Virus record (IMG/VR): IMGVR_UViG_2778261513_000009
Span: 1 to 33,995 of that record
Source of the DNA: a virus
Taxonomy: Duplodnaviria; Heunggongvirae; Uroviricota; Caudoviricetes
Strand: one strand, 5' to 3'
Length of the DNA: 33,995 bases
Below, one piece after another: positions 1,632 through 33,497 of this stretch (within the stretch, counting starts at the first letter, position 1; each line of letters starts with the position of its first letter). The notes under the pieces were generated by a model. That model saw only the letters and a program-made list of their open reading frames with translations. It was not told where the DNA came from and searched no databases. Both the position numbers and the translations under genes were made by a program.

Positions 1632-1634
1632 GGC

Positions 1635-12096: not shown

Positions 12097-12101
12097 AGTG
12101 T

Positions 12102-14502: not shown

Positions 14503-14507
14503 ATGCT

Positions 14508-14533: not shown

Positions 14534-14562
14534 TACTTCTTAACACTCACATCACTTTAAAA

Positions 14563-16701: not shown

Positions 16702-16895
16702 AAATTCACCGTCTCGGTTTTCGGGGCGCTGTCAGTTTCGGGCAGTTCTATTGCCGTGCCGTGCGGCAGAATAACGCCCAGCTCCGACAGCCCCGGATTC
16801 GCCTGCAGCACCGTTTCAACGACGCCCCCAGTGCGCCCGTAATACCGGGCGCAAATCGCATCGAGGGTGTCGCCCTGCATAGCCCTGACCTTCAT
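16692..16895 (-). CDS. X: Tail protein X
   Basis: Translation from ATG 16895 (MKVRAMQGDTLDAICARYYGRTGGVVETVLQANPGLSELG...) closely matches P2 gpX; the upstream ORF extension is not used. Confidence 0.85.
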   Translation of the reverse strand: MKVRAMQGDTLDAICARYYGRTGGVVETVLQANPGLSELGVILPHGTAIELPETDSAPKTETVNLWD

Positions 16896-17401: not shown

Positions 17402-17500
17402 GACAACCTCGGATAATGGGTGGGCGGTGGACGCCGGTCGCAGTCAGGGCAATCAATACCCGCATTGACCGGCGTGCCGCCCGGCTCGGGGAGCGCTCAG

Positions 17501-18256
17501 TTAACCTGCGGCTTTTGCCGCTTTCGGGGGACGCCCGCGCCGTGCCGCCGGTTTAGCGGCAGGTTTGCGCGTGCGCGGTTTATTCTGTTTTGGTGCGGGT
17601 TCTGCTTTGGGTTTCAGCGCGCGCTCGAGCTGTTCAATATCCTTTTTCACACCGACAGTTCGCTCTAACTGGATCGCACGCTGCAGGTGCGCCAGCGCAT
17701 CAGTCAGGCGGCCAGCCTCACGCAGCACGTAGCCGGTAATTTTGTGCAGCTTCGCGCGCACGATATCCGGCATGTCTGCCCGTTCGGTCAGTGCAATGGT
17801 GTCGAGCAGGAGCAGCAGCCCGACAGGCTGTTTCGCATCGAGCAGGCGCTGCGCTGACAGGGCGACTTCTTCGGCCAGCAGATACGGCGTGGTGCGCCGG
17901 TGGCCGCCGGTCGGCATGGTCAGGCCATAGGTCATCGCATAGCGGGCAATCTCCAGCGCACCGGCGATATCATCCGCATCGAGACGCCACAGCATGACGG
18001 TCATGACAATGTCATCCTGCGCCCCTTTTCCGGCGCTGAGGACACCCGACACCCACGGCAGATAGAACGGCAGCAGCTCACGCTTTTTGTCTGCCTTGCG
18101 TTCATTGGAGCGGATTTGTTTTAACGTGCGACAGTCTGCGGCCAGCTTGACGAGCATCTGCTCATAGGCAGTTGCATTGCGCAGCGGAGCAGCAGCCCGC
18201 CGCGCAGTTTCAGAGGCCGAGACCCGCATCATGTGACGCGCTGCGGGACTCGTCAT
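17501..18256 (-). CDS. M: Terminase small (endonuclease) subunit M
   Basis: 251-aa ORF with a basic C-terminal tail; follows N as in P2. Confidence 0.85.
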   Translation of the reverse strand: MTSPAARHMMRVSASETARRAAAPLRNATAYEQMLVKLAADCRTLKQIRSNERKADKKRELLPFYLPWVSGVLSAGKGAQDDIVMTVMLWRLDADDIAGALEIARYAMTYGLTMPTGGHRRTTPYLLAEEVALSAQRLLDAKQPVGLLLLLDTIALTERADMPDIVRAKLHKITGYVLREAGRLTDALAHLQRAIQLERTVGVKKDIEQLERALKPKAEPAPKQNKPRTRKPAAKPAARRGRPPKAAKAAG

Positions 18257-18259
18257 GGC

Positions 18260-19327
18260 TTATTCCCCGCTTTCCGGTGCGGCAGGTGCAGTGAAGTCAC
18301 CGAGATTGATGTTTTCAATCAGGCAACCGGCGGCGTAAGCCTCGACCACATAGTCAATATTCATCGACTCGTAGTTTTCGACGCGGTCTTTCTTCGGCTC
18401 CTCGATGATGGCGCGGCGGTGTGCGTCATCCATGAAGTAAATCGACAGGTTATCGAGACGCGTCACCATCAGGGCATTCGCCGGGAAGTACGGCACACGC
18501 ACAGCAGGCAGGTTGCCGATACGCTTCTGGCTGATGATGATGTCAGCGGCCAGCGTTTCGCTGTTTTCCTGCGCCTTGTTAACCAGCGGGAAATATTTAT
18601 CTGCCATCAGCTTACGGCCAGTGATAACGACGAGCTCCGGGTCATCCTGATAAATCTCATCAATCAGGTTGGTGGTCGAATCCATCACCAGCGCATCGAG
18701 GTTTTCATAGTCACCGTTTTTACCCACGCGGATCACATCGGAAATGACCTTGCCGTCATCATCAGTGACTTTCGACATCACACGCGCGGCAGCTTCATTG
18801 CGGTATTTCTGCAGCCAGCCCACCGCGACATCCTGCAGCATCGGGTTCGTTTTGCGGTTGGATGTCTCCGCGCGGGTGATACCGTTGAAACCGGCCATGA
18901 TGTAATCGAGCGACTGACGCTTGATAATCGCGTCACGGATACGGGTCTGAAAGTCCTGGAAACGCGCCCACAGGTCGAGCTGTTTGTAACGAATATGGAA
19001 ATCAAAGTTGATTTGTGCGCATTCGTATTTGTTGGATTCGAGCGCAGTGAAATCAGCGGTCTTACGCTCGTCATCGGCGGCGGTGTCCGTGGTGCTCGCA
19101 ATCGTACCGTTGACGCCGACCCCGACTTTTTCGCCTTTCAGCTCGTCGACCGGCACGATATTGATTTTGGTCAGAAACGCGGATGACGCCTGCAGGGTGG
19201 TCATCAGGGTCTGCGTCACGGACGGCTCAACGGTGAATTTTTTCGCCACGTCATCGGTGTCGACGCCGTTCAGCTCCGCCACGCGGGACAGGTAAGCATT
19301 GAATTTAAAGCGGGTATCTTTACGCAT
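18260..19327 (-). CDS. N: Major capsid protein N
   Basis: 355 aa from ATG 19327 (MRKDTRFKFNAYL...), preceded by an AGGA ribosome-binding site. Confidence 0.9.
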   Translation of the reverse strand: MRKDTRFKFNAYLSRVAELNGVDTDDVAKKFTVEPSVTQTLMTTLQASSAFLTKINIVPVDELKGEKVGVGVNGTIASTTDTAADDERKTADFTALESNKYECAQINFDFHIRYKQLDLWARFQDFQTRIRDAIIKRQSLDYIMAGFNGITRAETSNRKTNPMLQDVAVGWLQKYRNEAAARVMSKVTDDDGKVISDVIRVGKNGDYENLDALVMDSTTNLIDEIYQDDPELVVITGRKLMADKYFPLVNKAQENSETLAADIIISQKRIGNLPAVRVPYFPANALMVTRLDNLSIYFMDDAHRRAIIEEPKKDRVENYESMNIDYVVEAYAAGCLIENINLGDFTAPAAPESGE

Positions 19328-19388
19328 TGTTATTCCTGTTTTTCTACAAAGGGGCATCAGGCCGGGTGACGCGCACCCGGCAGGTCTG

Positions 19389-20243
19389 TCAGCAGTTGGT
19401 CAGCAGCTCGTCGCCCGTTCCGCCTTTCGACTTCTCGCGGCGCGGCTGGCGATAGCTTTCAGTGTTATCGAGGGAGCTTTTCAGGGCGTTAAGCGCCTGC
19501 GCGCTCTGCGTGGTCTGGCTGGTCACGTCCTGCTTTAGCTGTGCAAAGGCGGTTTCCAGCTCAGTGACGCGCGTTTCGGTGGCGGTCAGGTTGGTCTGTA
19601 CCTGCTCAGAGACGGCGGTCACCGCCTCATGCACATCAGCAAGACGGGCGTCATCGCTGACCTGTTTGCGGCTGAAAATCGATTTGACCTTGTCGGTCAG
19701 GCTGTTGAGCATGGTCTCGGGAACATCCTCGAATTCCAGCTCAGCAAGGGAGGCCACAGAGAAGAGGTCGCCCGGCTGGTCTTTTTTACCGGCGAGCGGG
19801 TTCTGCACCGCACGGCTGCAGAATTCGAGGTATTCCGTGCCGAGGCTTGCCGGGTCATCGGTCACGGCGAGACCAATCAGATAGCATTTACCGGTATTTG
19901 AGAAATTCGGGCGAATTTCCATGGAGGTGTAAACCTTCTGACCGGCACGCACCATGCTCACCAGTTCATCGAGCGGTGCAATCTTGCCGAACAGCGCTTT
20001 TTTGCCGTTCAGCGCAGAGTCATCACTGATGATTTCCGCTTTCACTTCGGTCACGTCGCCATAGCGTTTAAACGGACTGTCAGGCCAGAGGCTTTTGATG
20101 TGTTCGAGGTTAATGCGGCAACCGTAGACGCGCGGGTCAAAGGTATCCGCCATGTCCTGAATGTCATCCCCGTTGATGACACGGCCATCGCAGGTGTCAC
20201 CCTCGACGCCGATGCGAAACCATTTAGAAACTTTCTTTGCCAT
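19389..20243 (-). CDS. O: Capsid scaffolding protein O
   Basis: 284-aa ORF, same length as P2 gpO; first gene of the O-N-M-L operon, divergent from P. Confidence 0.9.
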   Translation of the reverse strand: MAKKVSKWFRIGVEGDTCDGRVINGDDIQDMADTFDPRVYGCRINLEHIKSLWPDSPFKRYGDVTEVKAEIISDDSALNGKKALFGKIAPLDELVSMVRAGQKVYTSMEIRPNFSNTGKCYLIGLAVTDDPASLGTEYLEFCSRAVQNPLAGKKDQPGDLFSVASLAELEFEDVPETMLNSLTDKVKSIFSRKQVSDDARLADVHEAVTAVSEQVQTNLTATETRVTELETAFAQLKQDVTSQTTQSAQALNALKSSLDNTESYRQPRREKSKGGTGDELLTNC

Positions 20244-20409
20244 TGTTCAGGTGTCCTGATGTTGGGTTTTAGGTTCGGGTGTAGTTTCCCGACTCCGCCC
20301 CGCATCAGCCACCGCTTGCAGACGTGTCCCCCCTGACACAACAGGGGGTTAGCGATAATGCCCCGCTATTTCCTTAGCCTTGCCCCGTATTCACTGACAC
20401 GAGGCAACC
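20244..20409. promoter_or_regulatory. Divergent intergenic region between O and P, expected to carry the Ogr-dependent late promoters
   Basis: Location by analogy to P2. Contains a dyad tgtcccccctgacacaacaggggg at about 20325-20348, but I did not find a canonical TGT-N12-ACA. Confidence 0.4.
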
Positions 20410-22179
20410 ATGACCATTTCAACTGACCTCTCCCTTTTGCACGACCCGCGACGACAGGCGCGCCTGCTGTTCTGGCAGGGGTTTTCCGTGCCACAAATCG
20501 CCGACACGCTGCAGGTCAAGCGCCCGACCGTGCAGAGCTGGAAACAACGTGACGGCTGGGAGGAAACCGCCCCGCTTAACCGCGTGGAATCCACGCTCGA
20601 GGCGCGCCTGATTCAGCTTTATGCAAAGCCTGACCTGACGCCGCATGATTTCAAGGTCGCTGATTTTCTGTCACGCCAGATGGAACGGCTCGCGCGTGTC
20701 AGCCGCTACGGCCAGACCGGAAACGAGGCAGATTTAAATCCCAACATTGCCAGCCGCAAAAAAGGCGACCGCCGCAAGCCAAAACGTAATTTTTTCAGCG
20801 ATGAGGCTATCGAAAAGCTCGAAGAGATTTTCTTCGATCAGTCCTTTGAGTATCAGCTCAACTGGCACAAGGCCGGTATCGCGCACCGTATTCGCCACAT
20901 CCTCAAATCGCGCCAGATTGGCGCAACATTCTACTTTGCCCGCGAGTCACTGCTGCGCGCCCTGAAAACCGGGCAAAACCAGATATTTTTGTCGGCCAGT
21001 AAGACGCAGGCTTACGTGTTCCGAAAGTACATCATCGCCTTTGCGCGCATGGTCGAGGTTGACCTGTCAGGCGACCCGATTGTCATCGGCAACAACGGCG
21101 CAGAGCTGATTTTTCTCGGGACAAATTCCAACACAGCGCAGAGTCATAACGGCGACCTGTATGTCGATGAAATCTTCTGGATCCCTAACTTTCAGAAACT
21201 GCGCAAAGTCGCCTCGGGGATGGCGTCACAGTCGCACCTGCGCACCACCTACTTTTCAACCCCCTCGACGCTGGCACATGGCGCCTATCCGTTCTGGTCA
21301 GGCGAGCTGTTTAACCGGGGACGCAGCAGCGCCGCCGAGCGTGTCGACATCGATATCAGTCATAAGGCGCTGGCCGGGGGCGTGCTGTGCCCGGACGGAC
21401 AGTGGCGGCAGATTGTCACCATCGAGGATGCGCTCGCCGGGGGATGCACGCTGTTTAATCTGGATCAACTGAAACAGGAAAACAGCGCCGATGATTTCCG
21501 CAACCTCTTCATGTGCGAGTTTGTCGACGACAAGGCGTCGGTATTCCCGTTCGAGGAGCTGCAGCGCTGCATGGTCGATGCGATGGAAGAATGGGAGGAC
21601 TTCGAGCCGTTTTCTGACCGTCCGTTTAACTGGCGTCCGGTCTGGATTGGCTATGCCCCGTCACATACCGGCGACAGCGCAGGCTGCGCGGTACTGGCTC
21701 CGCCACTGGTTGCCGGTGGCAAGTTCCGCATCCTTGAGCGTCACCAGTGGAAAGGCATGGATTTTGCGACGCAGGCCGAGGCCATCCGCGAGCTGACCGA
21801 AAAATACTGCGTCGAGTATATCGGCATCGATGCGACCGGCATAGGCCAGGGTGTTTACCAGCTCGTGCGCTCGTTCTTCCCGGCGGCGCGCGCCATTCGC
21901 TACACGCCGGAAATGAAAACCGCGATGGTGCTGAAAGCGAAAGACACCATCCGACGCGGGTGTCTGGAATACGACACCGGCGCAACCGACATCACACAGT
22001 CATTTATGGCTATCCGTAAAACCATGACCAGCAGTGGGCGAAGCTCCACCTATGAGGCCAGCCGCAGTGAAGAGGCCAGCCACGCGGATATTGCATGGGC
22101 AACCATGCACGCCCTGTTAAACGAGCCGCTTTCCGCCGGTAGCGGTATGCATTCAACGTCAATTCTGGATATTAACTGA
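20410..22179 (+). CDS. P: Terminase large (ATPase) subunit P
   Basis: 589-aa ORF, size as P2 gpP; divergent from O and followed by Q. Confidence 0.9.
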   Translation: MTISTDLSLLHDPRRQARLLFWQGFSVPQIADTLQVKRPTVQSWKQRDGWEETAPLNRVESTLEARLIQLYAKPDLTPHDFKVADFLSRQMERLARVSRYGQTGNEADLNPNIASRKKGDRRKPKRNFFSDEAIEKLEEIFFDQSFEYQLNWHKAGIAHRIRHILKSRQIGATFYFARESLLRALKTGQNQIFLSASKTQAYVFRKYIIAFARMVEVDLSGDPIVIGNNGAELIFLGTNSNTAQSHNGDLYVDEIFWIPNFQKLRKVASGMASQSHLRTTYFSTPSTLAHGAYPFWSGELFNRGRSSAAERVDIDISHKALAGGVLCPDGQWRQIVTIEDALAGGCTLFNLDQLKQENSADDFRNLFMCEFVDDKASVFPFEELQRCMVDAMEEWEDFEPFSDRPFNWRPVWIGYAPSHTGDSAGCAVLAPPLVAGGKFRILERHQWKGMDFATQAEAIRELTEKYCVEYIGIDATGIGQGVYQLVRSFFPAARAIRYTPEMKTAMVLKAKDTIRRGCLEYDTGATDITQSFMAIRKTMTSSGRSSTYEASRSEEASHADIAWATMHALLNEPLSAGSGMHSTSILDIN

Positions 22180-22180
22180 C

Positions 22181-23188
22181 ATGAAAAAACAACAGAATAA
22201 ACCCGCCACAACGACCGCCAGCGCGCCGCAAAAAATGGAGGCGTTCACCTTTGGCGAGCCCTCCGCCGTTCTGGATCGCCGCGATATCCTCGATTATGTC
22301 GAGTGCATCAATAACGGGAAGTGGTACGAGCCGCCGGTCAACTTCTCTGGTCTAGCAAAAAGCCTGCGAGCCGCCGTGCATCACAGCTCGCCGATTTACG
22401 TAAAACGAAATATTCTGACGAGCACCTACATCCCGCACCCGCTCCTGTCGCGTCAGGATTTCAGCCGCCTCGTGCTGGATTATCTGGTCTTTGCCAACGG
22501 CTATCTTGAGAAACGCATGAGTGTTACCGGCCAGCTTTTAAAACTGGAAACATCACCGGCTAAATATACCCGTCGTGGCGTCGAGGATGGCGTTTACTGG
22601 TACATATCGAGCTTTAACAACCCCCACCAGTTCGCACCCGGCTCGGTGTTTCACCTGCTGGAGCCTGACATCAATCAGGAGCTGTACGGCATGCCGGAAT
22701 ATCTGAGCGCATTGAATTCGGCATGGCTAAATGAATCCGCCACCCTGTTTCGTCGCAAGTATTACCAGAATGGCGCGCACGCGGGTTACATCTTGTATGT
22801 CACCGACGCTGCACAAAGCAGCACTGATGTTGAAGCACTACGCAAGGCAATGCGTGACTCAAAAGGACTCGGCAATTTCAAGAACCTATTTTTTTATGCA
22901 CCGAATGGAAAAGCTGATGGGATCAAAATTGTGCCACTCAGCGAAGTAGCAACGAAAGATGATTTCTTTAACATCAAAAAGGTTAGTGCAGAAGATTTGT
23001 TGAGTGCTCATAGGGTACCTCCACAAATGATGGGAATTATGCCTAACAATGTTGGCGGTTTTGGTGATGTTGTAAAAGCTGCACAAGTTTTTGTCCGAAA
23101 TGAGTTAACTCCTTTACAGGAACGGTTCAAAGAACTAAACAACTGGTTAGAAATGGACGTTATAAGATTTAAAAAATATTCACTTTGA
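22181..23188 (+). CDS. Q: Portal protein Q (3' third encoded by AT-rich DNA)
   Basis: 335-aa ORF starting 2 nt after the P stop; composition shifts to AT-rich near 22800. Confidence 0.9.
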   Translation: MKKQQNKPATTTASAPQKMEAFTFGEPSAVLDRRDILDYVECINNGKWYEPPVNFSGLAKSLRAAVHHSSPIYVKRNILTSTYIPHPLLSRQDFSRLVLDYLVFANGYLEKRMSVTGQLLKLETSPAKYTRRGVEDGVYWYISSFNNPHQFAPGSVFHLLEPDINQELYGMPEYLSALNSAWLNESATLFRRKYYQNGAHAGYILYVTDAAQSSTDVEALRKAMRDSKGLGNFKNLFFYAPNGKADGIKIVPLSEVATKDDFFNIKKVSAEDLLSAHRVPPQMMGIMPNNVGGFGDVVKAAQVFVRNELTPLQERFKELNNWLEMDVIRFKKYSL

Positions 23189-23253
23189 TTTTCGAAATAA
23201 ACATCTCAACATTATATTCAGCCCTGTAACTCAAGAACCACATATAATAACGT

Positions 23254-23278
23254 CACAGCCCACTTTATCGGGGCTGTG
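23254..23278. terminator. Bidirectional hairpin (cacagccc / gggctgtg) between convergent Q and the 370-aa cargo gene
   Basis: 8-bp perfect inverted repeat with a 9-nt loop and A/T-rich flanks. Confidence 0.5.
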
Positions 23279-23283
23279 ATAAT

Positions 23284-24396
23284 TTAACCAACCCTTGCTT
23301 TTTTATATGGACCACAACTCCAACTAAAGAAATTCTTACCTAACTTATACCATTTATCAGAAAGCACTGGTGTTAGGTGAGGATTATATTTTTTTAAACT
23401 TCCCTTTTGTATATATTTCAATGTATTGCTGAGCAAATTCTCTCCAAAACCATCATAACTTACACAAGCAGTGTTGCAGCTACAGCGTTTTGAGTCGATA
23501 TACTCACAATCATATTTTATATCAAGCTTCTTTAATATCGGACGCCAATATGCACCATGTTTTCGATCGAGTTCAAGGGCTGTTTTAAAATCAAAACCTT
23601 TTTTATGGTCAATGTAAAATTTTACTGATTCATCTACGGAGCAAAGATGCTTAAAGAAAATGAGAGATTTTTCTTTTTGTTGAAATTGACTTTGACTTCT
23701 TAATACATCTTCAATTGTCGATAAAGGAACTAGAGATTCTATTTCATGTACATCTAAAATCTCAACGAAACCTGAGCGAGTGATTTGTGAGCCCAAAAAA
23801 TGTGAGCAAGTACCCCCGAATGGGGCTCTAGGATGTTTTTTGTCATTATCCACAATACAAAAAACTATCTCATTATTTTGAATTGCACGCTCGAATACAT
23901 CCTTAGTACTACCCCCACCGCCATTTAGAGCGATAAAACCCATTTCGCAGCGAGATAAGTTAATACCTTCGGCATAATGAGCCGCTATAACTCTAAAAAA
24001 ATCAGAATCCAAAGGATTTTCACATACTATTTTCGTTTTTTGCAATTGTGCCGAGTCATTAAAATACAATGGACCACAAACAAATTTAAAAGATTCACCG
24101 TTCTGAACCCATCTAAATGATTTATCACTAATATTAAAGTCGACAGTTACATAAAATGAGACCTGGTTCAAGATAGCATAGTACTCTGTTAGACCCGACA
24201 AAGCCTCTTGCGCGTAACTTTTTGATGAAAGGCTATAAAGCCCGCTTTGATCATTGATAATAGTTTTAAAAAAAACCCTTGTCCCTATAACCAAGTGTTT
24301 TTGTTCAGCAAATGCCCGAAGTATATTCTCAACCGCTATGGCAAATGAATTATTTAGCACCTGCTCAGGTGTCGCATTTTCGATATGAATCAACAT
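23284..24396 (-). CDS. 370-aa protein with Toprim-like E...DxD core (putative nuclease effector), partner of the upstream ATPase
   Basis: Start codon 2 nt after the ATPase stop. Motifs read by eye: KIVCENPLDSDFF (E126), Gly-rich LNGGGGS, IVFCIVDNDKK (D183/D185) about 57 residues after the Glu, and a Cys-rich C-terminus. The Toprim assignment is unverified. Confidence 0.7.
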   Translation of the reverse strand: MLIHIENATPEQVLNNSFAIAVENILRAFAEQKHLVIGTRVFFKTIINDQSGLYSLSSKSYAQEALSGLTEYYAILNQVSFYVTVDFNISDKSFRWVQNGESFKFVCGPLYFNDSAQLQKTKIVCENPLDSDFFRVIAAHYAEGINLSRCEMGFIALNGGGGSTKDVFERAIQNNEIVFCIVDNDKKHPRAPFGGTCSHFLGSQITRSGFVEILDVHEIESLVPLSTIEDVLRSQSQFQQKEKSLIFFKHLCSVDESVKFYIDHKKGFDFKTALELDRKHGAYWRPILKKLDIKYDCEYIDSKRCSCNTACVSYDGFGENLLSNTLKYIQKGSLKKYNPHLTPVLSDKWYKLGKNFFSWSCGPYKKARVG

Positions 24397-24398
24397 AA

Positions 24399-25955
24399 CT
24401 ACTTACCAGAGAAAAAGCCAACCGGCCAATTTTGTAGGAAACCATTCTCGTCAAAATAAGATTTCTTAACTATGGTCTGCTGCTTTTCATCTTTTTCAAA
24501 TACCAGTATTGAAATATCATCCTGTGAAAGATTTTCATTTTCCTCAATATATTCACCAAGTGCTTCAATCATGGTCTGGCTATGTGTCTCAAAAATTATC
24601 TTCAAATCCACATTGTTTTCTTTTGCTTTAGTTACTACTTTTGCAAAAATACTTGCTAAATTATGTTGATATGACGGATGTAAATGCAATTCTGGCTGCT
24701 CAATGATAAATGTTATAGGTTTTCTAACCGTGGTAGCACGACGTTCTGTCTCAAGCCAAATGGCTGTAACTATCGGCAAAACCTGAGAGTAACCAAACCC
24801 CATATCACTAACATTATAGTTCTCACTATTTTCACCGGTATTTATTAAAATTGCAAAGTGAGAGCCACTTTGTTCAACCTTAATAATGAAATCAAAATTT
24901 AACTTTGTCCAATCTTCAAATTTTGATTTATCAGCCGGCCTTAATGAATTCAAAAGCATTGCAAGATTGGAACCAGTATGATCTATCTCATTAACCTGTA
25001 AATCTTGAAAGCGATAAAATCTTTCTGATGTAGCACGCAGTGGAGCTATGTACTTTACATTTCTGAATGAATCTGACAAGGATGTATTTATTATATCTAT
25101 AAGATTATTAATATTCCATCCAATTATAAATGGATATAACTCATTCATTATTTCATCATGTTGAAGTTCAAAGTTTCTACTAAAAACTTTTTGTTCCTTG
25201 AATAGAAAAGCAACTAATTTACTGGCGTACGCTTTGGGTATAAAGCCAATTCTTTTGAATGCCTCTGTCACTTGATTTATATCAGATTTAGTATGGAAAT
25301 ATTTCTTTATATATTTCGCTGCTGAATCAATAAATGACAATTCTAATGCCCTGTCATGCCTAGAATGTCTCAAATAGAATGATGTGCTTGGAGGAGGACT
25401 ATCTTCCTTACCCTTCAAAATTAGATTGGGTATGAACTGCCCAAGATTTTTAGCTATTATCCCATCACGCTCTATTGTTTTATCATCTGATTCAATGAGT
25501 AACTTAACATTACTGTTCTCATCCATTGAAATAAATATTGTTAAATCAGCCAATATAAGCTTAATCGTTTTTGTTTTTGTTTTTTTATCTTTAGAGTAAA
25601 CAGTCAACTCTGCTTCAACATCTGTTGGTTGCTTTGCTAAATCAGTAAAACGATAATATGTATATCTTTGTGAAACCTCTGGCGGAATTGAGAGTGAAAA
25701 ACTGAACGTAATTTCTTTTTTTTCAGAGTTTCGGGAAAGTACATCTGTAAAATCGCCAAAATCCACATATCGCCCATACCATAGTATTGGACCAGTAGTA
25801 TTTTCTTCTACAGATTGACGAAGTAAAGGAAATGTACGCAATAGGGAACTTTTACCACTGCTGTTCTTACCAACAAATACTGTAATTGGTTTTAAATCAA
25901 TAAAAGTTTTGTTGACAAAGCTCCTGAAGTTTTGAAGACCTATACCCTTAATCAT
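24399..25955 (-). CDS. ABC-type (AAA_15/AAA_21-like, OLD/AriA-like) P-loop ATPase, 518 aa
   Basis: Walker A VFVGKNSSGKSSLL; Walker B-like FIIEQPELHLHP; H-loop-like IFETHSQ. Start taken at ATG 25955 (MIKGIGLQNFRSF), which has GGAG 8 nt upstream; the ORF track extends to 26042 across the GC/AT junction. Confidence 0.8.
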   Translation of the reverse strand: MIKGIGLQNFRSFVNKTFIDLKPITVFVGKNSSGKSSLLRTFPLLRQSVEENTTGPILWYGRYVDFGDFTDVLSRNSEKKEITFSFSLSIPPEVSQRYTYYRFTDLAKQPTDVEAELTVYSKDKKTKTKTIKLILADLTIFISMDENSNVKLLIESDDKTIERDGIIAKNLGQFIPNLILKGKEDSPPPSTSFYLRHSRHDRALELSFIDSAAKYIKKYFHTKSDINQVTEAFKRIGFIPKAYASKLVAFLFKEQKVFSRNFELQHDEIMNELYPFIIGWNINNLIDIINTSLSDSFRNVKYIAPLRATSERFYRFQDLQVNEIDHTGSNLAMLLNSLRPADKSKFEDWTKLNFDFIIKVEQSGSHFAILINTGENSENYNVSDMGFGYSQVLPIVTAIWLETERRATTVRKPITFIIEQPELHLHPSYQHNLASIFAKVVTKAKENNVDLKIIFETHSQTMIEALGEYIEENENLSQDDISILVFEKDEKQQTIVKKSYFDENGFLQNWPVGFFSGK

Positions 25956-26327
25956 TCCTAGCTCCATTAGTTCAATAAAATCAATCGATTTTGAGACAAT
26001 CTTAATATCTTTGACAGGCGCGCGCAATGCTATCCCCGCCACGCCTGCCCGCTTAACGGGTCGCTTTTAATGCAGTTGCATGACCACACAGGATCCGCGC
26101 CAGCTCTGGCGGCGCGCGGCCAGAACGGGCAACCCTGACGCATGCAAAGCAATGCACCTGTTGCATGCGCGGCTAAAAAACCGGGAAATTGTGGGAAAAT
26201 GGCATAATAAAACCGGCTTTAATCGTGCCGGTTGAGGTTGGTCTCTACGGGACAGGCTAACGCCTCGCGGGGCTCGTTGTTCAACCCCGCAGGCACTGAA
26301 AACAAGTTTCAGCACCGGCGGCGTTTG

Positions 26328-26576
26328 CTAAGGTCGACGCGGTGGTGGCTTCGACATATTTGGTTGCCGAAACGCCTCAATTTTCGGATTGCTGATATCG
26401 CTGTATTTGCGGTGATTATCCCGGACGACACCGGCACATCCGACCAGTTCGTCAGGGGTCAGATTCTCGTTGATCATAATTTGCTGCAGGCGATGCACGA
26501 CGGCCATCAGCTTAATGTTTTGCGTTGAATGTACCGGCGGCACTGGCATCATTCGCATATGACTCATTTTAACCAC
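26328..26576 (-). CDS. Hypothetical small protein (82 aa) downstream of the ASCH-like gene
   Basis: ORF only; position corresponds to small early-operon ORFs of P2-like phages. No motif recognised. Confidence 0.3.
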   Translation of the reverse strand: MVKMSHMRMMPVPPVHSTQNIKLMAVVHRLQQIMINENLTPDELVGCAGVVRDNHRKYSDISNPKIEAFRQPNMSKPPPRRP

Positions 26577-27028
26577 CCATTTTTTTTAGCATATGCGACC
26601 ATCTTGTCGGAATATTGCCAGACACCATCATCAGCGACGTAAGCCCCACCCGAAACGCCGTTAAGCGTTTCATATCCAATAGCCAGCCCTAACGGATGTA
26701 GAATTTCGTGATTAATTCTGAAAACAAGCCCTTTCTCGCTTAACTCTTTCCAGTTCATTAGTGACATACCGCACTGGACATCTGGCATCATTAACTGAAA
26801 ACTCAGCATCACATAATTTTCCGCCCATTCAGCTAAATCAGTAACGTTTGTCACCCTCACTGATACACGTTTCCCGGTATATCCGTTTACCGGTTCCCAT
26901 TCATGCAACCCGAGAATATCACCACTAGAATAATCGCGGTCATTGAAACGAAATTCAGCACGTTTTTCCTGAGATATCACCGCTTTAAAATGCTCAGGTG
27001 CAATTTTTAACTGATGGATTTTGCTCAT
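26564..27028 (-). CDS. Hypothetical protein with N-terminal ASCH/DUF3850-like domain and a C-terminal extension
   Basis: Start ATG 27028 with AGGAG 8 nt upstream, 5 nt after the A stop. N-terminus MSKIHQLKIAPEHFKAVISQEKRAEFRFNDRDY resembles DUF3850-type proteins as I recall them. Confidence 0.5.
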   Translation of the reverse strand: MSKIHQLKIAPEHFKAVISQEKRAEFRFNDRDYSSGDILGLHEWEPVNGYTGKRVSVRVTNVTDLAEWAENYVMLSFQLMMPDVQCGMSLMNWKELSEKGLVFRINHEILHPLGLAIGYETLNGVSGGAYVADDGVWQYSDKMVAYAKKNGWLK

Positions 27029-27033
27029 TAACT

Positions 27034-29319
27034 TTACTCCTCTTGCATTGAGAATCCCGGCCACTCATCAGCAGCCGCGTATTTGAATTTTTTATCGCCA
27101 TAAATCACCGTTGCCCCACGCGCCAGCGCTTCAAGCTCCCACCGTTCCGGGGTAATGCTCTCCTGAGCCAAATCGAAACGAATTTTCGCTATGCGATCCC
27201 TTTCTGGTTTTGTCATCCTGGCTGATGGCGCTTGCTCGCTCGTTTTGAGTGGAGCATGGCTTCTTTGCTGGCGATTTTTGCGAGGGATACCAGCTTTTAA
27301 CGCGCCGTTAAGCACCTTCATGACGTCTGGCTCATTCCAGCCGATAACCCCGCGCTCAATCAGATTTAACACCGCTGCGGCTTGCTCAGACGGTGTGGGT
27401 GTCATAACTGGAGCATCACCGCCGGTGAGCTTTCCACAGTTATTGACAGGACTCCGAGGCGCGGCAGAGCCGCTTTTTAAGGTCAAAGGCTCAACGGCCA
27501 AAATCTTTGGAACAATGCGCCATTCGGCTGTACGGGTTACATGTATGCGACTCGCCCCGAGGTGAGGGGCATAAATGCCGACCACTCTCTCGATATCTTC
27601 CTCATATTCGTTGACCTCATCAGTCACCTTACGGGCGACCCTAACGGCCTGCGCATCACGCGGCATGTTTGCCCCACCCTGTGCGATGATATACAGGTTA
27701 AATTCACCTTCATCAGCAGCAGCCCGGACAGCCTCGACCCGGTCGTCAAACTCACTGGCGATACTCACGCCGCGCGGCAGCTTGCGCAGTTCGCGGTAAG
27801 CGCCCATTGTCGGTAGGCCAATTGGTTTAAACTGCGGGATGCGCCATGTAGACGCCCATGCAGTTACGGCTGCGGCGGTATCTTTCAGAGGCTTTCCGGT
27901 GTCGTGGTCGATCTGGCCGTCGAGTGCGTAGCCGTCGATATTTTTGGCAATGTATTTAGCGATATAACCCGCCGCACCGCCCTGATTAAGATGACGTGAC
28001 TCAAAGCGCTGTTTTGCCGCTCCCTTTTCGTGCCCGTCCTCTTTGAGAGCATAACGACGCATAATTTCGTTAATAGCTTTACGCTGACCGGGTTTGCAAA
28101 ACAGCATCATGTGCCAGTGTGGCGTCCCGTCGTGGTGCGGTTCGACAACACGCATCCCGTAAACCTCTAAATCGTTATCTTTGAAAGCGGTGCGTATCAG
28201 GCTCCAGATTCGGCACAGATAGCGCTGGCCGTCTTTGGGGGTAAATGCGGTTTCATTCCAGCCATGATTGAGCTACACAGTTTTGTTTTCACCTTTGCCG
28301 ACCTGTCGGGTCGGGTGATACTTCGATGGCGTGGTCAGCGTGATAAACATCCCCACGTCACCAACGCAGGCCGCGTAGCGTTCAATCCCGGCGATAGTGT
28401 TCATCAGTTCCATACGCCGTATTTCAGGGTTAGAAATACTCCCCATTACCTTACTGATGAGGTCGATACGTTCGCCGGTGACTTTGTTTTCCAGCTCGCA
28501 GGATTTCAGGTATTCGAGATTAGCCAGGCGGCGCGCGTGCACATCGCGGATCGCCATTTTGCTTGCGTAAGGTGAGCGGTCTTTGTTGACCTCGCCAGCC
28601 GCAATAAGCAGCGCCTCGCGCCAGCGCATCCGCTGCGCCTTGAGCTGGCTGACCCACCACTCATCTTTTATCAGACGGGAAATAGCAGAAAATGCCATGC
28701 GGATCGTCATCTGACCCTTACGGTATTTTTTCCAGTACATCGGGGTGAAGTTAAAAGCGCGAGCAATACCGGCCACCTGACCGTATAAATGCGCCTGCGC
28801 CTCATCGGTGAATAAAGTGTCTTTCCCGCCGTGCGCCTCCTCCCATGCGTCGCTTAACTCCTCGTATTTGCTCCAGAGTTGAGAAGCAATTCTGGCCGCA
28901 AACTTCTTAAGCTCTTTGTCATTCATATCCGGCAGGCGCACATACTGGTCACGCTCGGACAAAAAACCAATCGAGGCGGATTCATTCATTCCGCACAGCT
29001 CATTAACACGCTCAAGACGCGGCAGCAACTTGCGCTCAAACGTGTTTTTGAGGAAATACAGCCCACCCAAGGGGCTCTTTGTGCGGCGGATGAAGTTATA
29101 ACGCGAGGTAAACAGCGTTTGCAGGAAAAACGGCAGGCGATCAATCCGGTTTAAAACACCTTGCACCTGACGGAGTTCGGCACGTGTAAGGGGTCTGTCG
29201 CGGCCAACTGCCTCGCGGGATTTATTCCACGGATAAGCACCGACGAAATTATCACCGGTGCTTTTTGGTAGTGGCGGAGGTGGCGAGGGGGCAACGCGCC
29301 CCCGAGTTTCAACGGCCAT
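27034..29319 (-). pseudogene. A: Replication initiation protein A (rolling-circle HUH endonuclease) interrupted by an in-frame amber codon at 28273-28275
   Basis: ORFs 28273-29397 and 27034-28155 are in the same frame; the 117 nt between them has no stop other than TAG at 28273-28275. The joined product would be about 761 aa from ATG 29319, carrying the HUH motif (HWHMMLF) and a tandem-tyrosine motif (YIAKYIAK). Confidence 0.8.
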
Positions 29320-29584
29320 CTGCAGCAAACGCAATCTGACATTGCTGACCAATGCGCTCGACCTGCTCGCCAATGTCCGCAAAACTAGCCGCCTCACCGG
29401 TCAGAATGCCATGTAATATCAGACCAGATACGAGTCTGGAAACTGTTGGATAATAGCCAATTACACCGAGCCACTCTTTACCGGCGCTCTTTCCTGATTT
29501 TGCGGTTTTCTTTTCCTGCAAAATAAATTGAAACTGGTCACTAGTGACGACGAAACGGTCGCCCACCTCAATATAAATTGACAT
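29309..29584 (-). CDS. Hypothetical early-operon protein (orf82/83-like position)
   Basis: 91-aa ORF immediately upstream of A, overlapping its start by 11 nt. Confidence 0.55.
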   Translation of the reverse strand: MSIYIEVGDRFVVTSDQFQFILQEKKTAKSGKSAGKEWLGVIGYYPTVSRLVSGLILHGILTGEAASFADIGEQVERIGQQCQIAFAADGR

Positions 29585-29883
29585 TATTTACCACCTTTCC
29601 GATTTAATTTTTTTAGCTCACACGCACAATATGTAGATTGTTCAGCCATGAATTGTATTAATTCATCCACAGTGGTTATTTTCTTGCGATAAATAGCACG
29701 TTTGACAATTAGGTCGACAACATCAGAAAACAGATTTAACTCATTCGAATAAATAGCGATAACTGACCCAACCATCAAGCCAGATTCTTTATCACTTTTG
29801 AGGTCAGACAGAGATAAATCACCATTTTTGAGAACGGCAACTTTTAACCAGCCATTGAGAATCACAGATTTCAGCACAGACAT
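29584..29883 (-). CDS. Hypothetical early-operon protein (99 aa, AT-rich)
   Basis: ORF tightly packed in the early operon; about 38% GC. Confidence 0.5.
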   Translation of the reverse strand: MSVLKSVILNGWLKVAVLKNGDLSLSDLKSDKESGLMVGSVIAIYSNELNLFSDVVDLIVKRAIYRKKITTVDELIQFMAEQSTYCACELKKLNRKGGK

Positions 29884-30140
29884 TAAACAGCCTCCCCACG
29901 GGCGAGACCTGCGTTATGAAGTACCGTTGATTCCTGGCTGAGTAACTCGACAATCTCAACACGCCCCAACTCCTGCGTAACGATATGTTGAATCAGTTTA
30001 TCCAGATGAAATGAGAATATAGTCGCTGCGTCGGCCTGCGCTTCTGCTCTGGCCTGCTGAAGCAATAAAGAAAAATTGCTGCTTTGCTTTTCCGTTCCTG
30101 TAAGCATGACTTTCTCCAGACAAAAAGAAGTCCCGCACAA
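29883..30140 (-). CDS. Hypothetical early-operon protein
   Basis: 85-aa ORF between B and the downstream small ORFs; start uncertain. Confidence 0.45.
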
Positions 30141-30170
30141 TCAAGTGCGTTTAAAATTTAGATTATTTAA

Positions 30171-30671
30171 TTAATGCAAATATTGCTCAGGCTTGACCGA
30201 TGTTAATATCGTCGGCGCGTACTCAAACAGGCTAAACAACTCACGTAAAGCACGAAATAAATTTTCACGCCAATAACATGATTCTTCATTAATACGCCAG
30301 TAAGGCTGATTAAATTCAACCTCACTTAACCCTGCATGTAAAAACAATGACCGCCGTTGGCTAACCGTTAGAAAACTAATATATGCGGACTCACTTGAGC
30401 CAACCTGACGACGTTTTGAAAATGCAGCACGTAGCTCGTCGATAGCGCACACCAGACGCTCCCGGTCTACATCGTTCATTTCTTCAAGACGCATCGTCGC
30501 ATGACGCTGTTTTAATTGAGCATGAAAACAGACCGTCAGGCGGTCGCGTTCCATCATTTGATTATAGAAATCACAGCTATCCTGCCAGCGGGGCGCTGCA
30601 AGATATTTACCAATCAGACTACGTAATCCTTCTGGCTGCTTGTCCACAATGGCAAGGGTCATAACCGTCAT
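30171..30671 (-). CDS. B: Replication protein B (helicase-loader-like)
   Basis: 166-aa ORF, same length as P2 gpB, with an N-terminus (…TLAIVDKQPEGLRSLIGKYLAAPRWQDSCDFYNQM…) that I recall as resembling P2 B. Confidence 0.7.
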   Translation of the reverse strand: MTVMTLAIVDKQPEGLRSLIGKYLAAPRWQDSCDFYNQMMERDRLTVCFHAQLKQRHATMRLEEMNDVDRERLVCAIDELRAAFSKRRQVGSSESAYISFLTVSQRRSLFLHAGLSEVEFNQPYWRINEESCYWRENLFRALRELFSLFEYAPTILTSVKPEQYLH

Positions 30672-30838
30672 AACGATACCCCTATGGATTTTATGAAGCG
30701 TTTAGTCATGGCAAAAAATCCCGGCTTACGGGTGCGGATGATGATGCCTTTACGTCCCTTACCGTGAGTAATCTTGAACGTCATCGGCTGGGGACTTTCC
30801 TTACGAAGTAGCTGCGCAATACAACGTGGTTCTTGCAT
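30668..30838 (-). CDS. Small basic hypothetical protein (56 aa)
   Basis: ATG 30838 preceded by a GGAGG ribosome-binding site; translation MQEPRCIAQLLRKESPQPMTFKITHGKGRKGIIIRTRKPGFFAMTKRFIKSIGVSL. Confidence 0.5.
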   Translation of the reverse strand: MQEPRCIAQLLRKESPQPMTFKITHGKGRKGIIIRTRKPGFFAMTKRFIKSIGVSL

Positions 30839-30937
30839 AAATCCTCCATTAAGTAGCCGGGTTTTGCCCATGCCCGGCACATGGTCTTGTGGTAGGATTG
30901 AATCGCCAAAAACAACTCCACCACTAAGAGGTAAAAA

Positions 30938-31129
30938 GTGAACAATCAAAAACTTAATGAATTAATTACCACTCTTGAACAAGCCGTAGCATTAATTGAG
31001 TCTCTACCAACCCCAATGGGTGACGTGGAAAAATCGAATCAAGTCGATGTATTGACAATTAAGTTAAGAGAATTAGCTCACTCAAAAAAACCAAATCATC
31101 TTCAAGGGTTTATTGATATAAACGACTAA
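30938..31129 (+). CDS. Small 63-aa predicted helical protein, convergent with the 139-aa gene (AT-rich cargo)
   Basis: GTG start with AAGAGG 6 nt upstream; AT-rich; stop overlaps the stop of the convergent 139-aa gene. Confidence 0.45.
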   Translation: MNNQKLNELITTLEQAVALIESLPTPMGDVEKSNQVDVLTIKLRELAHSKKPNHLQGFIDIND

Positions 31130-31545
31130 GCGTCTAATTCATGTGGTGCGGCTTTTTTGGGACGATGCGACCGCACCATCACATTAAAAATGTCATCCCA
31201 ATCATCTTTGCTCATTAGCGTAATACCCAGCTCCCGAGCCTTTTCTCTTACACAGCGCGCCAGATATAAACGATTATCAATACTTATCCCTATAGCCCTT
31301 TCTTTCATGCGGCCGTAGTTATCAGAAAGAAGCTGTATCAAGTCAAGGCGTAGTATTTCAACTGAGCCATCAGTGCTGCGAAAAACTAAATCATCACCAT
31401 CAATAAACACTGGTTCACTTTTGAGCTCTTCGCTACTCACCCACTTACGCAGACTTCGTGGAACAACAAGACTATTTGAAGGTGTCATTTCGTCTAATTC
31501 ACCACTGAATAAAGCCACTTTTATGGTTTTCAACTGATGTTCCAT
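31126..31545 (-). CDS. 139-aa hypothetical protein directly downstream of cox (AT-rich cargo)
   Basis: ATG 31545 with AAGGGGG ribosome-binding site; about 38% GC against a roughly 55% backbone; N-terminal segment LVVPRSLRKWV is faintly AbrB/SpoVT-like. Confidence 0.6.
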   Translation of the reverse strand: MEHQLKTIKVALFSGELDEMTPSNSLVVPRSLRKWVSSEELKSEPVFIDGDDLVFRSTDGSVEILRLDLIQLLSDNYGRMKERAIGISIDNRLYLARCVREKARELGITLMSKDDWDDIFNVMVRSHRPKKAAPHELDA

Positions 31546-31609
31546 TTCTACCCCCTTATGCCGACTGGTCAGCTAGCCATTCACAAACTGAGCGATGTAT
31601 TTCAACCGG

Positions 31610-31879
31610 TTAAGACCCTAAGCCCAACCACATTAGCCACCCTTCCCTAATTTCTTTCGGGCGACTTTCATATGCGAGTTTCATGCCGTTGTTCCATGCT
31701 GGGAGGTAAACCCAGTATTCACCTACTGTTCCGCTGGTTGACTGCGGATCAGTCATTTTAATAATGGGTAGCTTCCCTTTATCAATCATTCCCCGAACAG
31801 CCATGGGAGTCTTACCAATAAGCCTTGCGAACTCTTGATAAGGGACTGCATCAGTTACACTTACAAGCTGTTTGCTCAT
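31610..31879 (-). CDS. cox: Cox (excisionase / repressor of Pc)
   Basis: 89-aa translation MSKQLVSVTDAVPYQEFARLIGKTPMAVRGMIDKGKLPIIKMTDPQSTSGTVGEYWVYLPAWNNGMKLAYESRPKEIREGWLMWLGLG is near-identical to P2 Cox as I recall it. Confidence 0.85.
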   Translation of the reverse strand: MSKQLVSVTDAVPYQEFARLIGKTPMAVRGMIDKGKLPIIKMTDPQSTSGTVGEYWVYLPAWNNGMKLAYESRPKEIREGWLMWLGLGS

Positions 31880-31904
31880 CTGTTACGATTCTCCTTTAGT
31901 GCTA

Positions 31905-31941
31905 TTAATTGCTCTTAATGGGGTTTAATTGCTCTTAATGG
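31905..31941. promoter_or_regulatory. Two 17-bp direct repeats ttaattgctcttaatgg spaced 20 bp apart (putative operator at the early promoter)
   Basis: Perfect copies at 31905-31921 and 31925-31941 in the cox-C divergent region; P2 C repressor is known to bind direct repeats flanking the early promoter. Confidence 0.55.
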
Positions 31942-31971
31942 TGATTCACCCATCGGAAAGATAAATCTACG

Positions 31972-32000
31972 ATAGGTGATAATATTCAACTATAGGTGAT
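31972..32000. promoter_or_regulatory. Two 9-bp direct repeats ataggtgat spaced 20 bp apart, just upstream of C (putative Cox or C binding site at Pc)
   Basis: Copies at 31972-31980 and 31992-32000, ending 3 nt before the C start codon. Confidence 0.45.
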
Positions 32001-32003
32001 TTT

Positions 32004-32303
32004 ATGTCAATAGAGATTCATGAAAAAATCAAGCTCATCAGAGAGTCTGAAAGACTAAATAGAAGAGAATTCAGTGAGTTAACAGGGATCGTTTACGGTT
32101 CTTTTTGTAGCTATGAGGCTGGCGATAAAAAACCAGGTGTGGAGCAAATAATGAAAATCCTTCAACACCCGCGCTTCACCAAGTACACGATGTGGTTTAT
32201 GACTGATCAAATAACACCTGAAGCTGGGCAGATTGCACCGGCTCTCGCGCACTTTGGGCAGCCGACAACAACGTCACCCCACTCAGACCAGAAAACTGGC
32301 TAA
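32004..32303 (+). CDS. C: Immunity repressor C
   Basis: 99 aa, same length as P2 C; C-terminal ...FTKYTMWFMTDQITPEAGQIAPALAHFGQPTTTSPHSDQKTG strongly resembles P2 C. Confidence 0.85.
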   Translation: MSIEIHEKIKLIRESERLNRREFSELTGIVYGSFCSYEAGDKKPGVEQIMKILQHPRFTKYTMWFMTDQITPEAGQIAPALAHFGQPTTTSPHSDQKTG

Positions 32304-32399: not shown

Positions 32400-33413
32400 A
32401 TGTCTGTTAAAAAGCTCGATGATGGTCGATATGAAGTGGACGTCAGACCTGCAGGGCGCAACGGAAAGCGCATCCGCAGGAAGTTCGATAAGAAAAGTGA
32501 AGCTATCGCTTTTGAAAAATATACTCAGTACAACCATCACAACAAAGATTGGTTGGCTAAACCGACAGATAAGCGGCATCTGTCAGAATTAACAAAAGTC
32601 TGGTGGGATTTGAAGGGCAAGCATGAGACTCATGGTCGAGATTATCTAGGAAAAATTGAGTTATTCACAAGGATTACAAGTGACCCATGCGCATTTCAGA
32701 TTACTAAATCATTGATTAGCCAGTACGGCACGGTGCGCCGTTCTCAGGGCATCAAACCATCGAGCATCAACCGCGATTTGACTTGCCTTAGCGGAATGTT
32801 TACCTCGTTGATAGATGCAGAGCTATTTTTCGGTGAACACCCTTTCAGAGGTGTTAAGCGACTGAAAGAGGACAAACCTGAAACTGGCTACCTCACGCAA
32901 GAGGAGATCGCTGATCTACTGTCGAAAGTCGATGGGGATAATAAGAAAATAGCGATTCTTTGTCTTAGCACCGGCGCGAGATGGAGTGAGGCTGCAAAAT
33001 TGAAAGCTGAAAACATCATCCAAAATCGCGTCACGTTCGTTAAGACAAAAACCAACAAACCGCGAACCGTTCCGATATCCGAGGAGCTGGCAACAATGAT
33101 CACATCAGGAAAGCGTGGCTATCTGTTCACGAACGCTAACTATCCTGCATTCAGACGATTAATGAAAGAGTTGAAACCGGACTTGCCACCGGGTCAGGCG
33201 ACGCACGCATTGCGTCACAGCTTTGCCACTCACTTTATGATTAACGGAGGCAGCATTATCACGCTTCAACGGATACTCGGGCACTCACGAATTGAGCAGA
33301 CAATGACCTATGCACATTTCGCCCCTGAGTACCTGCAGGACGCGGTAACGCTTAATCCTTTACGCGGTGGCACTGATGCTCTGAGTGTCCACACAATGTC
33401 CACGCTTGAATGA
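32400..33413 (+). CDS. int: Tyrosine integrase (P2 Int family)
   Basis: MSVKKLDDGRYEVDVRPAGRNGKRIRRKFDKKSEAIAFEKY... and C-terminal ...HALRHSFATHFMINGGSIITLQRILGHSRIEQTMTYAHFAPEYL match P2 Int as I recall it, including the catalytic R/H/Y region; GGGAGG ribosome-binding site. Confidence 0.9.
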   Translation: MSVKKLDDGRYEVDVRPAGRNGKRIRRKFDKKSEAIAFEKYTQYNHHNKDWLAKPTDKRHLSELTKVWWDLKGKHETHGRDYLGKIELFTRITSDPCAFQITKSLISQYGTVRRSQGIKPSSINRDLTCLSGMFTSLIDAELFFGEHPFRGVKRLKEDKPETGYLTQEEIADLLSKVDGDNKKIAILCLSTGARWSEAAKLKAENIIQNRVTFVKTKTNKPRTVPISEELATMITSGKRGYLFTNANYPAFRRLMKELKPDLPPGQATHALRHSFATHFMINGGSIITLQRILGHSRIEQTMTYAHFAPEYLQDAVTLNPLRGGTDALSVHTMSTLE

Positions 33414-33497
33414 TTTATAGTGGCTTTCAGTGGTCTTGCGTGCCGCGCAAACCCGCATTGCACCGCTGAAAGCCCCTGTTGTAGGGGTATAAAAACG

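Follow-up and report, generated by a model that had tools for sequence, protein, structure and literature searches.

The question raised by this locus is which of two sets of direct repeats, both lying between a cox-like and a C-like gene, sets the immunity of the phage, and what the other set would be for. Immunity class decides which P2-like phages superinfect a lysogen and, to our knowledge, operators have been mapped experimentally for three C classes only, i.e. those of P2, P2 Hy dis and WPhi. The DNA analysed here, a stretch of 33,995 nucleotides referred to as the window, comes from a P2-like prophage, and an identical prophage is found in E. coli UTAK-6.

According to the ORF coordinates, positions 31880-32003 make up the whole 124-bp spacer between the two genes. 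The cox gene (31610..31879, minus strand) encodes a protein of 89 aa that carries the Pfam domain Phage_Cox (PF10743, E=5e-41), matches the P2 Cox structure PDB 4LHF over residues 1-88 (E=2e-47) and shares 80% identity with P2 Cox and 40% with WPhi Cox; its product is predicted to be a Cox-type repressor of Pc and an excision directionality factor. On the other side, the C immunity repressor gene (32004..32303, plus strand) was assigned by homology to P2 C and encodes a 99-aa helix-turn-helix (HTH) protein with YGSFCSYEA as its helix 3. Its residues 1-99 align by phmmer with residues 1-99 of the P2 C structures PDB 2L49 and 2XCJ (E=2e-36), at 62% identity with P2 C and 49% with WPhi C. The integrase gene (32400..33413, plus strand; Pfam Int_N and Phage_integrase) follows 3' of C in the Pc operon, a gene order as in P2. 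The cox and C ORFs are divergent, and homology to P2 places the promoters face-to-face, with Pe adjoining C and Pc adjoining cox.

Judged by its sequence, the locus belongs with the P2-type C/Cox switches (Peduoviridae), since the hallmarks of a P2 switch are present, i.e. a C homologue, a divergent Phage_Cox gene, a predicted Pe at the C start, a putative C half-site pair, cox-box-like units and a predicted att-side Cox region; among the hallmarks that can be tested in sequence, a recognisable Pc consensus is the exception. The spacer matches no Rfam family and no tRNA, and its reading as a structured RNA or hairpin was dropped on these grounds, together with a fold z-score of -1.65.

The longer of the two repeats, TTAATTGCTCTTAATGG, is found at 31905-31921 and 31925-31941, i.e. 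20 bp start-to-start with a 3-bp gap, and the match between the two copies stretches to 18 of 20 positions. No third copy with two or fewer mismatches was found in the 34-kb window, for which the chance expectation is 0.09 matches at three or fewer mismatches, and a direct repeat of this length arose in none of 20,000 local shuffles. Because the 17-mer is itself made of TTAAT cores 10 bp apart (starting at 31905, 31915, 31925 and 31935), the true period is 10 bp, not 20 bp. The shorter repeat, ATAGGTGAT, occurs at 31972-31980 and 31992-32000, again 20 bp start-to-start and with an 11-bp gap, and a pattern search returned these two as the only exact copies in the window. This pair was missed by a general repeat finder and was recovered both by the exact pattern search and by our own direct-repeat scan; a direct repeat as good, at a spacing of 12-40 bp, was seen in 0.3-0.8% of local shuffles. 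A preliminary description of this DNA had reported two perfect 17-bp repeats and two 9-bp repeats, each pair 20 bp apart, between divergent cox and C genes, and all of this agrees with our data.

We consider first the side of the spacer that adjoins C. A consensus promoter scan predicts Pe as a strong promoter on the minus strand at 32010..31981 (TTGACA-18-AATATT, 10/12 matches), with the -35 hexamer TTGACA at 32005..32010, overlapping C codons 1-3, and the -10 hexamer AATATT at 31981..31986, in the position of the P2 Pe -10; GAATAT at 31987..31982 is an alternative -10 with a 17-nt spacer. The two 9-mers lie around this -10. The putative promoter-proximal C half-site O1 (31992..32000) occupies the spacer between -35 and -10, ends 3 nt before the C ATG as does P2 O1, and overlaps the Shine-Dalgarno sequence of C, while the putative promoter-distal half-site O2 (31972..31980, core ATAGGTGA), placed as in P2, lies directly downstream of the -10 and covers the expected Pe start site. 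The GenBank annotation of P2 has Pe -35 at C bases 2-7 and O1 ending 3 nt before the ATG, followed by Pe -10 and then by O2, a layout that the window repeats base-for-base as regards Pe -35, O1 and -10, with O2 displaced by no more than 2 bp.

The same pair emerges when no position is assumed. In an unbiased search, the best direct repeat within the 75 nt upstream of the C ATG was ATAGGTGAT for the window, at a spacing of 20 bp and ending 3 nt from the ATG. As a control, the search recovered the mapped operators of P2 (ATCTAAAC, 22 bp) and of WPhi (GTCACCAATA, 34 bp), the published values being those of PMC1904268, where C is described as recognizing direct-repeat half-sites (PMC1904268). P2 C reads DNA via helix 3, residues 31-39, in which the proposed base contacts are poorly conserved between classes (PMC2995052). 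The window C differs from P2 C at positions 33, 34, 35, 36, 39 and 41, where it has S33, F34, C35, S36, A39 and D41 against T33, L34, S35, Y36, S39 and R41 in P2, and the differing residues include the proposed base contacts 33, 35, 36 and 41.

The decisive evidence comes from comparing the 9-mer with the repressor encoded next to it. The exact pair ATAGGTGAT-N11-ATAGGTGAT was found by pattern scan in 38 IMG/VR contigs, and in 36 of the 38 pair-bearing loci C is 89-100% identical to the window C; the Cox proteins of these loci are 81-84% identical to the window Cox and their cox-proximal array is different. Four pattern matches (L041, L079, L084 and L096), which encode neither C nor Cox, were treated as chance. 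To remove selection on the repeat itself, 80 loci were gathered via the C protein. All 39 of the protein-gathered loci with the recognition region IVYGSFCSYE(A/S)GDK carry ATAGGTGA-N12-ATAGGTGA, and the sole recurrent change in their O2 is that of the 9th base from T to C. Protein-gathered loci of classes with other helix-3 residues lack the pair, its place being taken by other sequences. The sister class IAYGSFCGYEAGDK, for instance, shows CTTATAAGAG / CTTATGGAGG at that position, 19 bp apart, and in the LVYGSFCSYEAGDK class, with the same helix 3 as the window, O1 is kept and the second site, 19 bp away, is degenerate.

Among 17 distinct spacers of the class, the O1 core does not vary, and the O2 core is almost as constant. 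Conservation within the C class, however, takes in the entire Pe module (31962-32001) and goes beyond the half-sites, and O1 is independently constrained because it overlaps the ribosome-binding site of C. Within-class conservation therefore cannot single out the 9-mers, and the argument for the half-sites was built on between-class covariation instead.

The overlap with the ribosome-binding site also gives rise to another explanation, according to which the pair is not an operator at all, O1 serving simply for ribosome binding at C (AGGTGAT) and O2 being a second copy that arose by chance or by hitch-hiking. AGGTGAT can pair with the 3' end of 16S rRNA and stands 4 nt before the C ATG, an AGGAG-like sequence is found at the O1 position in other classes too, and a local chance probability of about 0.3-0.8% for the 9-mer repeat is not vanishing. 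Nevertheless, O2 is not followed by a start codon, yet its core is kept in 39/39 protein-gathered loci of the class, and both 9-mer positions change together when helix 3 of C changes. Considering also that the pair brackets Pe -10 exactly like P2 O1/O2, and that the same repeat search recovers the proven P2 and WPhi operators, we hold this explanation to be very improbable. The 9-mer pair is best explained as the predicted C operator O1/O2 on Pe, which would set the immunity type.

The 17-mers lie on the other side of the spacer, towards cox. P2 Cox protects at least 70 bp containing at least six cox-boxes with the consensus TTAAA(G/C)NC(A/C), spaced 10-11 bp start-to-start and overlapping the -10 and -35 of Pc, and these boxes are thought to nucleate a DNA-wrapping Cox filament (PMC3936717). 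Matching to this consensus gives an array of five cox-box-like units in the window (31900..31948, minus strand), all in one orientation and in an exact 10-bp phase. On the cox-sense strand they read TGAATCACC (31948..40), TTAAGAGCA (31938..30), TTAAACCCC (31928..20), TTAAGAGCA (31918..10) and TTAATAGCA (31908..00), with scores of 6, 6, 8, 6 and 6 of 8, respectively. Counted from the cox side, copy 1 of the 17-mer (31905..31921) spans units 1-2 and copy 2 (31925..31941) units 3-4. At 32/40, their phased sum exceeds that of any other place in the 34-kb window and was reached by none of 1000 whole-window shuffles, 1000 random sequences of spacer composition and 5000 spacer shuffles, although this score is inflated by the internal duplication. 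Single 6/8 matches to the cox-box are common, about 26 per kb, and the most repeated unit, TTAAGAGCA, scores just 6/8. By eye, a possible sixth box may be seen at about 31890-31899, over the cox RBS, where the literature gives at least six.

When one spacer from each C class was aligned together with that of P2, all aligned classes proved to be conserved in the part next to cox (the RBS and the first three or four units), and the best P2 boxes, TTAAACGCA, TATAAGACA and TAAAAGGCA, share alignment columns with units 2-4 of the window. The exact 17-mer is present in 57 IMG/VR contigs, beside at least six different C helix classes, so that the long repeat is not class-specific; 55 contigs other than those of the window lineage have a single copy and belong to several C classes. 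A perfect second copy is restricted to the window lineage (L008 and L029, with C and Cox 100% identical), the second unit of relatives being imperfect (16/20-type) at an unchanged spacer length of 124 bp.

The P2 annotation puts the -10 and -35 of Pc near cox. In the alignment, TTTAAT (31924..31929, plus strand) falls on the annotated P2 Pc -10 TATAAT and is the predicted Pc -10 of the window, and L048-class relatives show a perfect TATAAT in these columns. A weak -35-equivalent, ATTAAT (31904..31909, plus strand), is predicted by homology only from its alignment with the P2 Pc -35 ATGAAT, while the consensus promoter scan returned no match for Pc on the plus strand; the annotated -35/-10 spacer of P2 Pc is itself unusual, at 14 nt. 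The distance from Pc -10 to Pe -10 is 51 nt in the window and 49 nt in P2.

Being the most conspicuous direct repeats in the spacer, the 17-mers might themselves be taken for the C operators that define immunity, the 9-mers then being secondary or incidental. C-family repressors do bind direct repeats, and the 20-bp spacing of the 17-mers resembles the two-turn operator spacing of P2. However, the exact 17-mer stands beside at least six C recognition-helix classes and is absent from 18 of 20 distinct spacers of the window's own main helix class (IVYGSFCSYEAGDK). Moreover, the 17-mers adjoin cox, at the place of Pc and the cox-boxes in P2 and about 45-80 bp from Pe, and they align with P2 sequence despite the different immunity of P2, all of which makes a role as C operators hardly credible.

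It is somewhat less far-fetched, but still improbable, that the 17-mers have no protein-specific role and reflect local duplication or homogenization in AT-rich promoter DNA, with Cox binding elsewhere or non-specifically. They could then represent two TTAAT-type, -35/-10-like Pc hexamers 20 bp apart, or intrinsically curved DNA. The restriction of the perfect second copy to the window lineage, with relatives having imperfect, 16/20-type units, would fit such an origin, as would the coincidence of the TTAAT cores with the predicted Pc hexamers, the frequency of 6/8 cox-box matches and the inflation of the phased score by the internal duplication. The spacer is nevertheless 124 bp long in relatives with imperfect units too, which speaks against a recent insertion, and for this reason a recent tandem duplication was dropped as the origin of the 17-mers. 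Furthermore, the array keeps its 10-bp phase, its single orientation and its match to the consensus over five units, which no shuffle equalled, the P2 boxes fall in the same columns as the array units, literature footprints put the P2 boxes over Pc, and a further, P2-like Cox site has been retained at att.

The latter is predicted by P2 homology at 33421..33475 and contains P2-type boxes TGAAAGCCA (minus strand) and TGAAAGCCC (plus strand), each scoring 7/8; the P2 annotation likewise has a Cox site at attP just beyond the int 3' end. It is adjoined by Int P'-arm repeats (GTGTCCAC..TGTCCAC) at 33385-33403, and over 33385-33490, on the downstream side of int, the identity to the Int P'-arm of P2 plus its annotated Cox site is 81%. 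As this region is P2-like and has 7/8 boxes, a Cox with P2-like recognition fits. The window Cox has P25, M26 and G30 where P2 Cox has T25, G26 and R30; these are proposed DNA-contact residues, T25 being a proposed specificity residue, so that its exact box preference may not be that of P2 Cox.

Taken together, the 17-mers are best explained as part of a predicted cox-box array over Pc and not as an immunity determinant. The preliminary description had seen in the long repeat the sign of a distinct immunity, and this part of it has to be given up, as the long repeat aligns with the Pc/cox-box region of P2, matches the cox-box consensus and stands beside at least six C classes, while it is the 9-mer that covaries with C. 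Its broader proposals held up better: both repeat sets, which it had taken for operators of the Pe/Pc switch, are best explained as direct-repeat protein-binding sites, and the predicted specificity does set the window apart from P2, WPhi and P2 Hy dis. Of the checks it had named, promoter prediction yielded Pe (10/12) and not Pc, at least by consensus scan, and comparison with known operators set half-site and spacing apart from those of both P2 (ATCTAAAC, 22 bp) and WPhi (GTCACCAATA, 34 bp).

We therefore read the spacer as a P2-type bistable switch, in which the 9-mers would form the C operator on Pe and the 17-mers part of a cox-box array over Pc, and put the probability of this reading at roughly 0.8. 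It is built on the anatomy of the sequence, the positional homology to P2 sites, the covariation of the 9-mer with C and the independence of the 17-mer from C; from these we infer that the sites are bound, where transcription starts, which hexamers make up Pc, and heteroimmunity. In such a switch, Pe would drive cox and the early genes, and the weak Pc would drive C and int. In the lysogen, C dimers would bind O1 and O2 cooperatively and exclude RNA polymerase from Pe, thereby keeping lysogeny and immunity, while Pc would go on expressing C and int. Once Pe fires, Cox would build up, oligomerize along the phased array, wrap the DNA and silence Pc, leading to lytic growth; by also binding the P2-like site by the int 3' end (33421-33475), it would promote excision. 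With predicted starts at about 31974 (minus strand) and about 31936 (plus strand), the convergent transcripts would overlap by approximately 35-40 nt, as in P2.

The spacer behaves as two modules with a hypervariable linker between them. The Pe/operator module (about 31962-32003) is specific to C, whereas the Cox/Pc module (about 31880-31940) is common to different classes, and our data show that the C/operator and the Cox/array modules recombine independently. The fifth unit of the array (31940-48) falls in the class-specific part of the spacer and, because it includes the half-site core of C, GGTGATT, may be a third site for C instead of a cox-box.

Among the closest known systems is P2 (class I), with which the window shares the gene order int-C / cox-orf78-B, a Pe -35 TTGACA over the C start, half-sites bracketing the Pe -10 and the Cox/Int-arm region at att. 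The two differ in the half-site and its spacing (ATCTAAAC at 22 bp in P2, ATAGGTGA(T) at 20 bp in the window), in the helix-3 region of C as given above, in the length of the spacer (114 bp in P2, 124 bp in the window) and in the predicted Pc -10 (TATAAT and TTTAAT, respectively). In addition, the array of the window is more regular than that of P2, with its exact 10-bp phase and the perfect 17-bp duplication.

In WPhi (class III), direct-repeat C half-sites also span the Pe -10, and the Pe -35 TTGACA also overlaps the C start, but the half-sites are 10 bp long (GTCACCAATA) and 34 bp apart. A GGTGA core is common to both, albeit in opposite orientation, i.e. Pe-sense in WPhi (TATTGGTGAC) and C-sense in the window (ATAGGTGAT), and since the orientation relative to Pe is reversed, this likeness may be coincidence. 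P2 Hy dis (class II), which was compared by its description, has a C-family repressor, two 8-bp direct repeats and a P2-compatible Cox as well, whereas its half-sites lie around the -35 with a spacing of 26 bp (2.5 turns), against a pair flanking the -10 at 20 bp in the window.

Further likenesses are found in coliphage 186 CI/Apl and in the Xis/Cro-type factors of lambda. These systems also have face-to-face lytic and lysogenic promoters, and a small dual-purpose excisionase/repressor that binds direct repeats spaced by one helical turn, at the switch as well as at att (PMC7498355). Phage 186 differs in having a larger CI of another family together with CII, and an Apl that is not a Pfam Phage_Cox protein, while the window encodes the P2-type C of 99 aa and no cII.

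Since half-site, spacing and helix 3 all differ, the window probably does not belong to the immunity class of P2 or of WPhi. Immunity classes VIII-X were reportedly defined from sequenced E. coli genomes, and as the spacer was found in only one of 5426 complete E. coli genomes, the next best match being 76.5%, these classes are argued against. Among annotated phage records nothing was closer than about 75% identity, so that these supply no operators of the same class, and a literature search for work after 2011 on P2-like half-sites found none. Set against the P2 and WPhi sequences and the description of Hy dis, the immunity class, with its 8-9-bp half-sites at 20-bp spacing, is apparently uncharacterized.

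It is tempting to go further and speculate, though we think this rather unlikely in all its parts, that the window represents an undescribed class common in Citrobacter, Enterobacter and Klebsiella and near-absent in E. coli, with the tightest known spacing (20 bp), an O1 that doubles as the C RBS, a third partial half-site (GGTGATT, 31941-47) by Pc for autoregulation of C, and an unusually regular, perfectly duplicated cox-box array. If true, the locus would offer a clean natural substrate for the reading of direct repeats by a symmetric C dimer and for the nucleation of the Cox filament. Regardless, the accepted picture of the P2 switch is left unchanged. What our data add is a likely operator for one more class, two copies of ATAGGTGA at a spacing of 20 bp, and this is of use when the immunity of prophages is annotated and when test cases are sought for how symmetric HTH dimers recognize direct repeats.

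Regarding the distribution of this repressor, the exact C protein is encoded on about 207 public contigs, and both it and the members of its protein cluster, which come from Citrobacter, Enterobacter, Klebsiella and E. coli, carry generic names only. Searching with C in a contig collection with one genome per species returned four enterobacterial relatives only, and the same operator is found in a prophage of Enterobacter bugandensis.

The operators appear to follow the class of the C repressor, as sorted by the helix-3 recognition region. A sister class (L149-L156 and related IMG/VR loci) carries the helix region IAYGSFCGYEAGDK and shares 80-87 of 99 C residues. Its candidate operators differ: at the same position, in the 45 nt preceding the C ATG, CTTATAAG(A/G)G is paired with C(T/G)TATGGAGG at a distance of 19 bp. 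In the LVYGSFCSYEAGDK class, O1, the predicted C half-site nearest to C, is retained, and the second half-site, O2, is degenerate (ATAGGTTTA) and found at 19 bp.

O1 is contained in a 14-bp near-palindrome with the halves TCAACTA and TAGGTGA (within 31986-32003). Since its AGGTGAT motif is complementary to the 3' end of 16S rRNA, it is likely also the Shine-Dalgarno sequence of C, and ribosome-binding site and operator half-site would therefore overlap. A partial third copy of the half-site core, GGTGATT (31941-31947, within GGTGATTCAC at 31940-31949), is located around 34 bp from O2 and a short way downstream of the predicted -10 of Pc, the C/int promoter. It belongs to the class-specific part of the spacer: relatives with the same C have it, and the other C classes lack it. 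A partial third copy, CTAAACA, is also seen in P2, 15 bp past O2. GGTGATT may be a weak third C site with a role in Pc autoregulation.

On the Cox side, the window protein (31610-31879) has P25, M26 and G30, whereas P2 Cox has T25, G26 and R30, with T25 being a proposed DNA-specificity residue. Like the window, most relatives with the TTAATTGCTCT array of cox-box-like units encode P25, (A/M)26 and G30, and WPhi Cox shares P25. These changes may be the reason for the TTAAGAGCA-type box variant.

Some 770 bp (30839-31609) separate cox from the orf78 homologue (phrog_273, 30671-30838) and lack a P2 counterpart. The stretch holds a 139-aa ORF on the minus strand (31126-31545) and a 63-aa ORF on the plus strand (30938-31129); because neither was matched in Pfam, PHROG or PADLOC, it may represent a cargo insertion.

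Although the switch looks intact, the prophage may be replication-defective, since the homologue of the replication gene A (27034-29397) is split by one stop codon (around 28273-28275, context ...KTV*LNHG...) into two in-frame ORFs, both of which match Phage_GPA (Pfam).

At the position of P2 old/tin (23284-26042), a known P2 hotspot, a 547-aa AAA_15 ATPase is followed by a 370-aa protein for which no family was matched. The ATPase matched NsnB (7e-55) and AriA (4e-31) in PADLOC, and Old and GajA weakly. The pair is a candidate two-gene anti-phage defence system. A 404-aa ORF with a TTG start (13288-14502, plus strand) runs opposite to the neighbouring tail and baseplate genes; it was without a match in Pfam and PADLOC, and its stretch contains no rival ORF of at least 110 aa.

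No tRNA was found anywhere in the window. The left end (1-1530) is host DNA, in which a gene for a U32-family peptidase (1-1362) precedes the CyaR/RyeE sRNA (1445-1530; Rfam, 100 bits). This is the yegQ-cyaR locus, at which P2 remnants are found in E. coli K-12.
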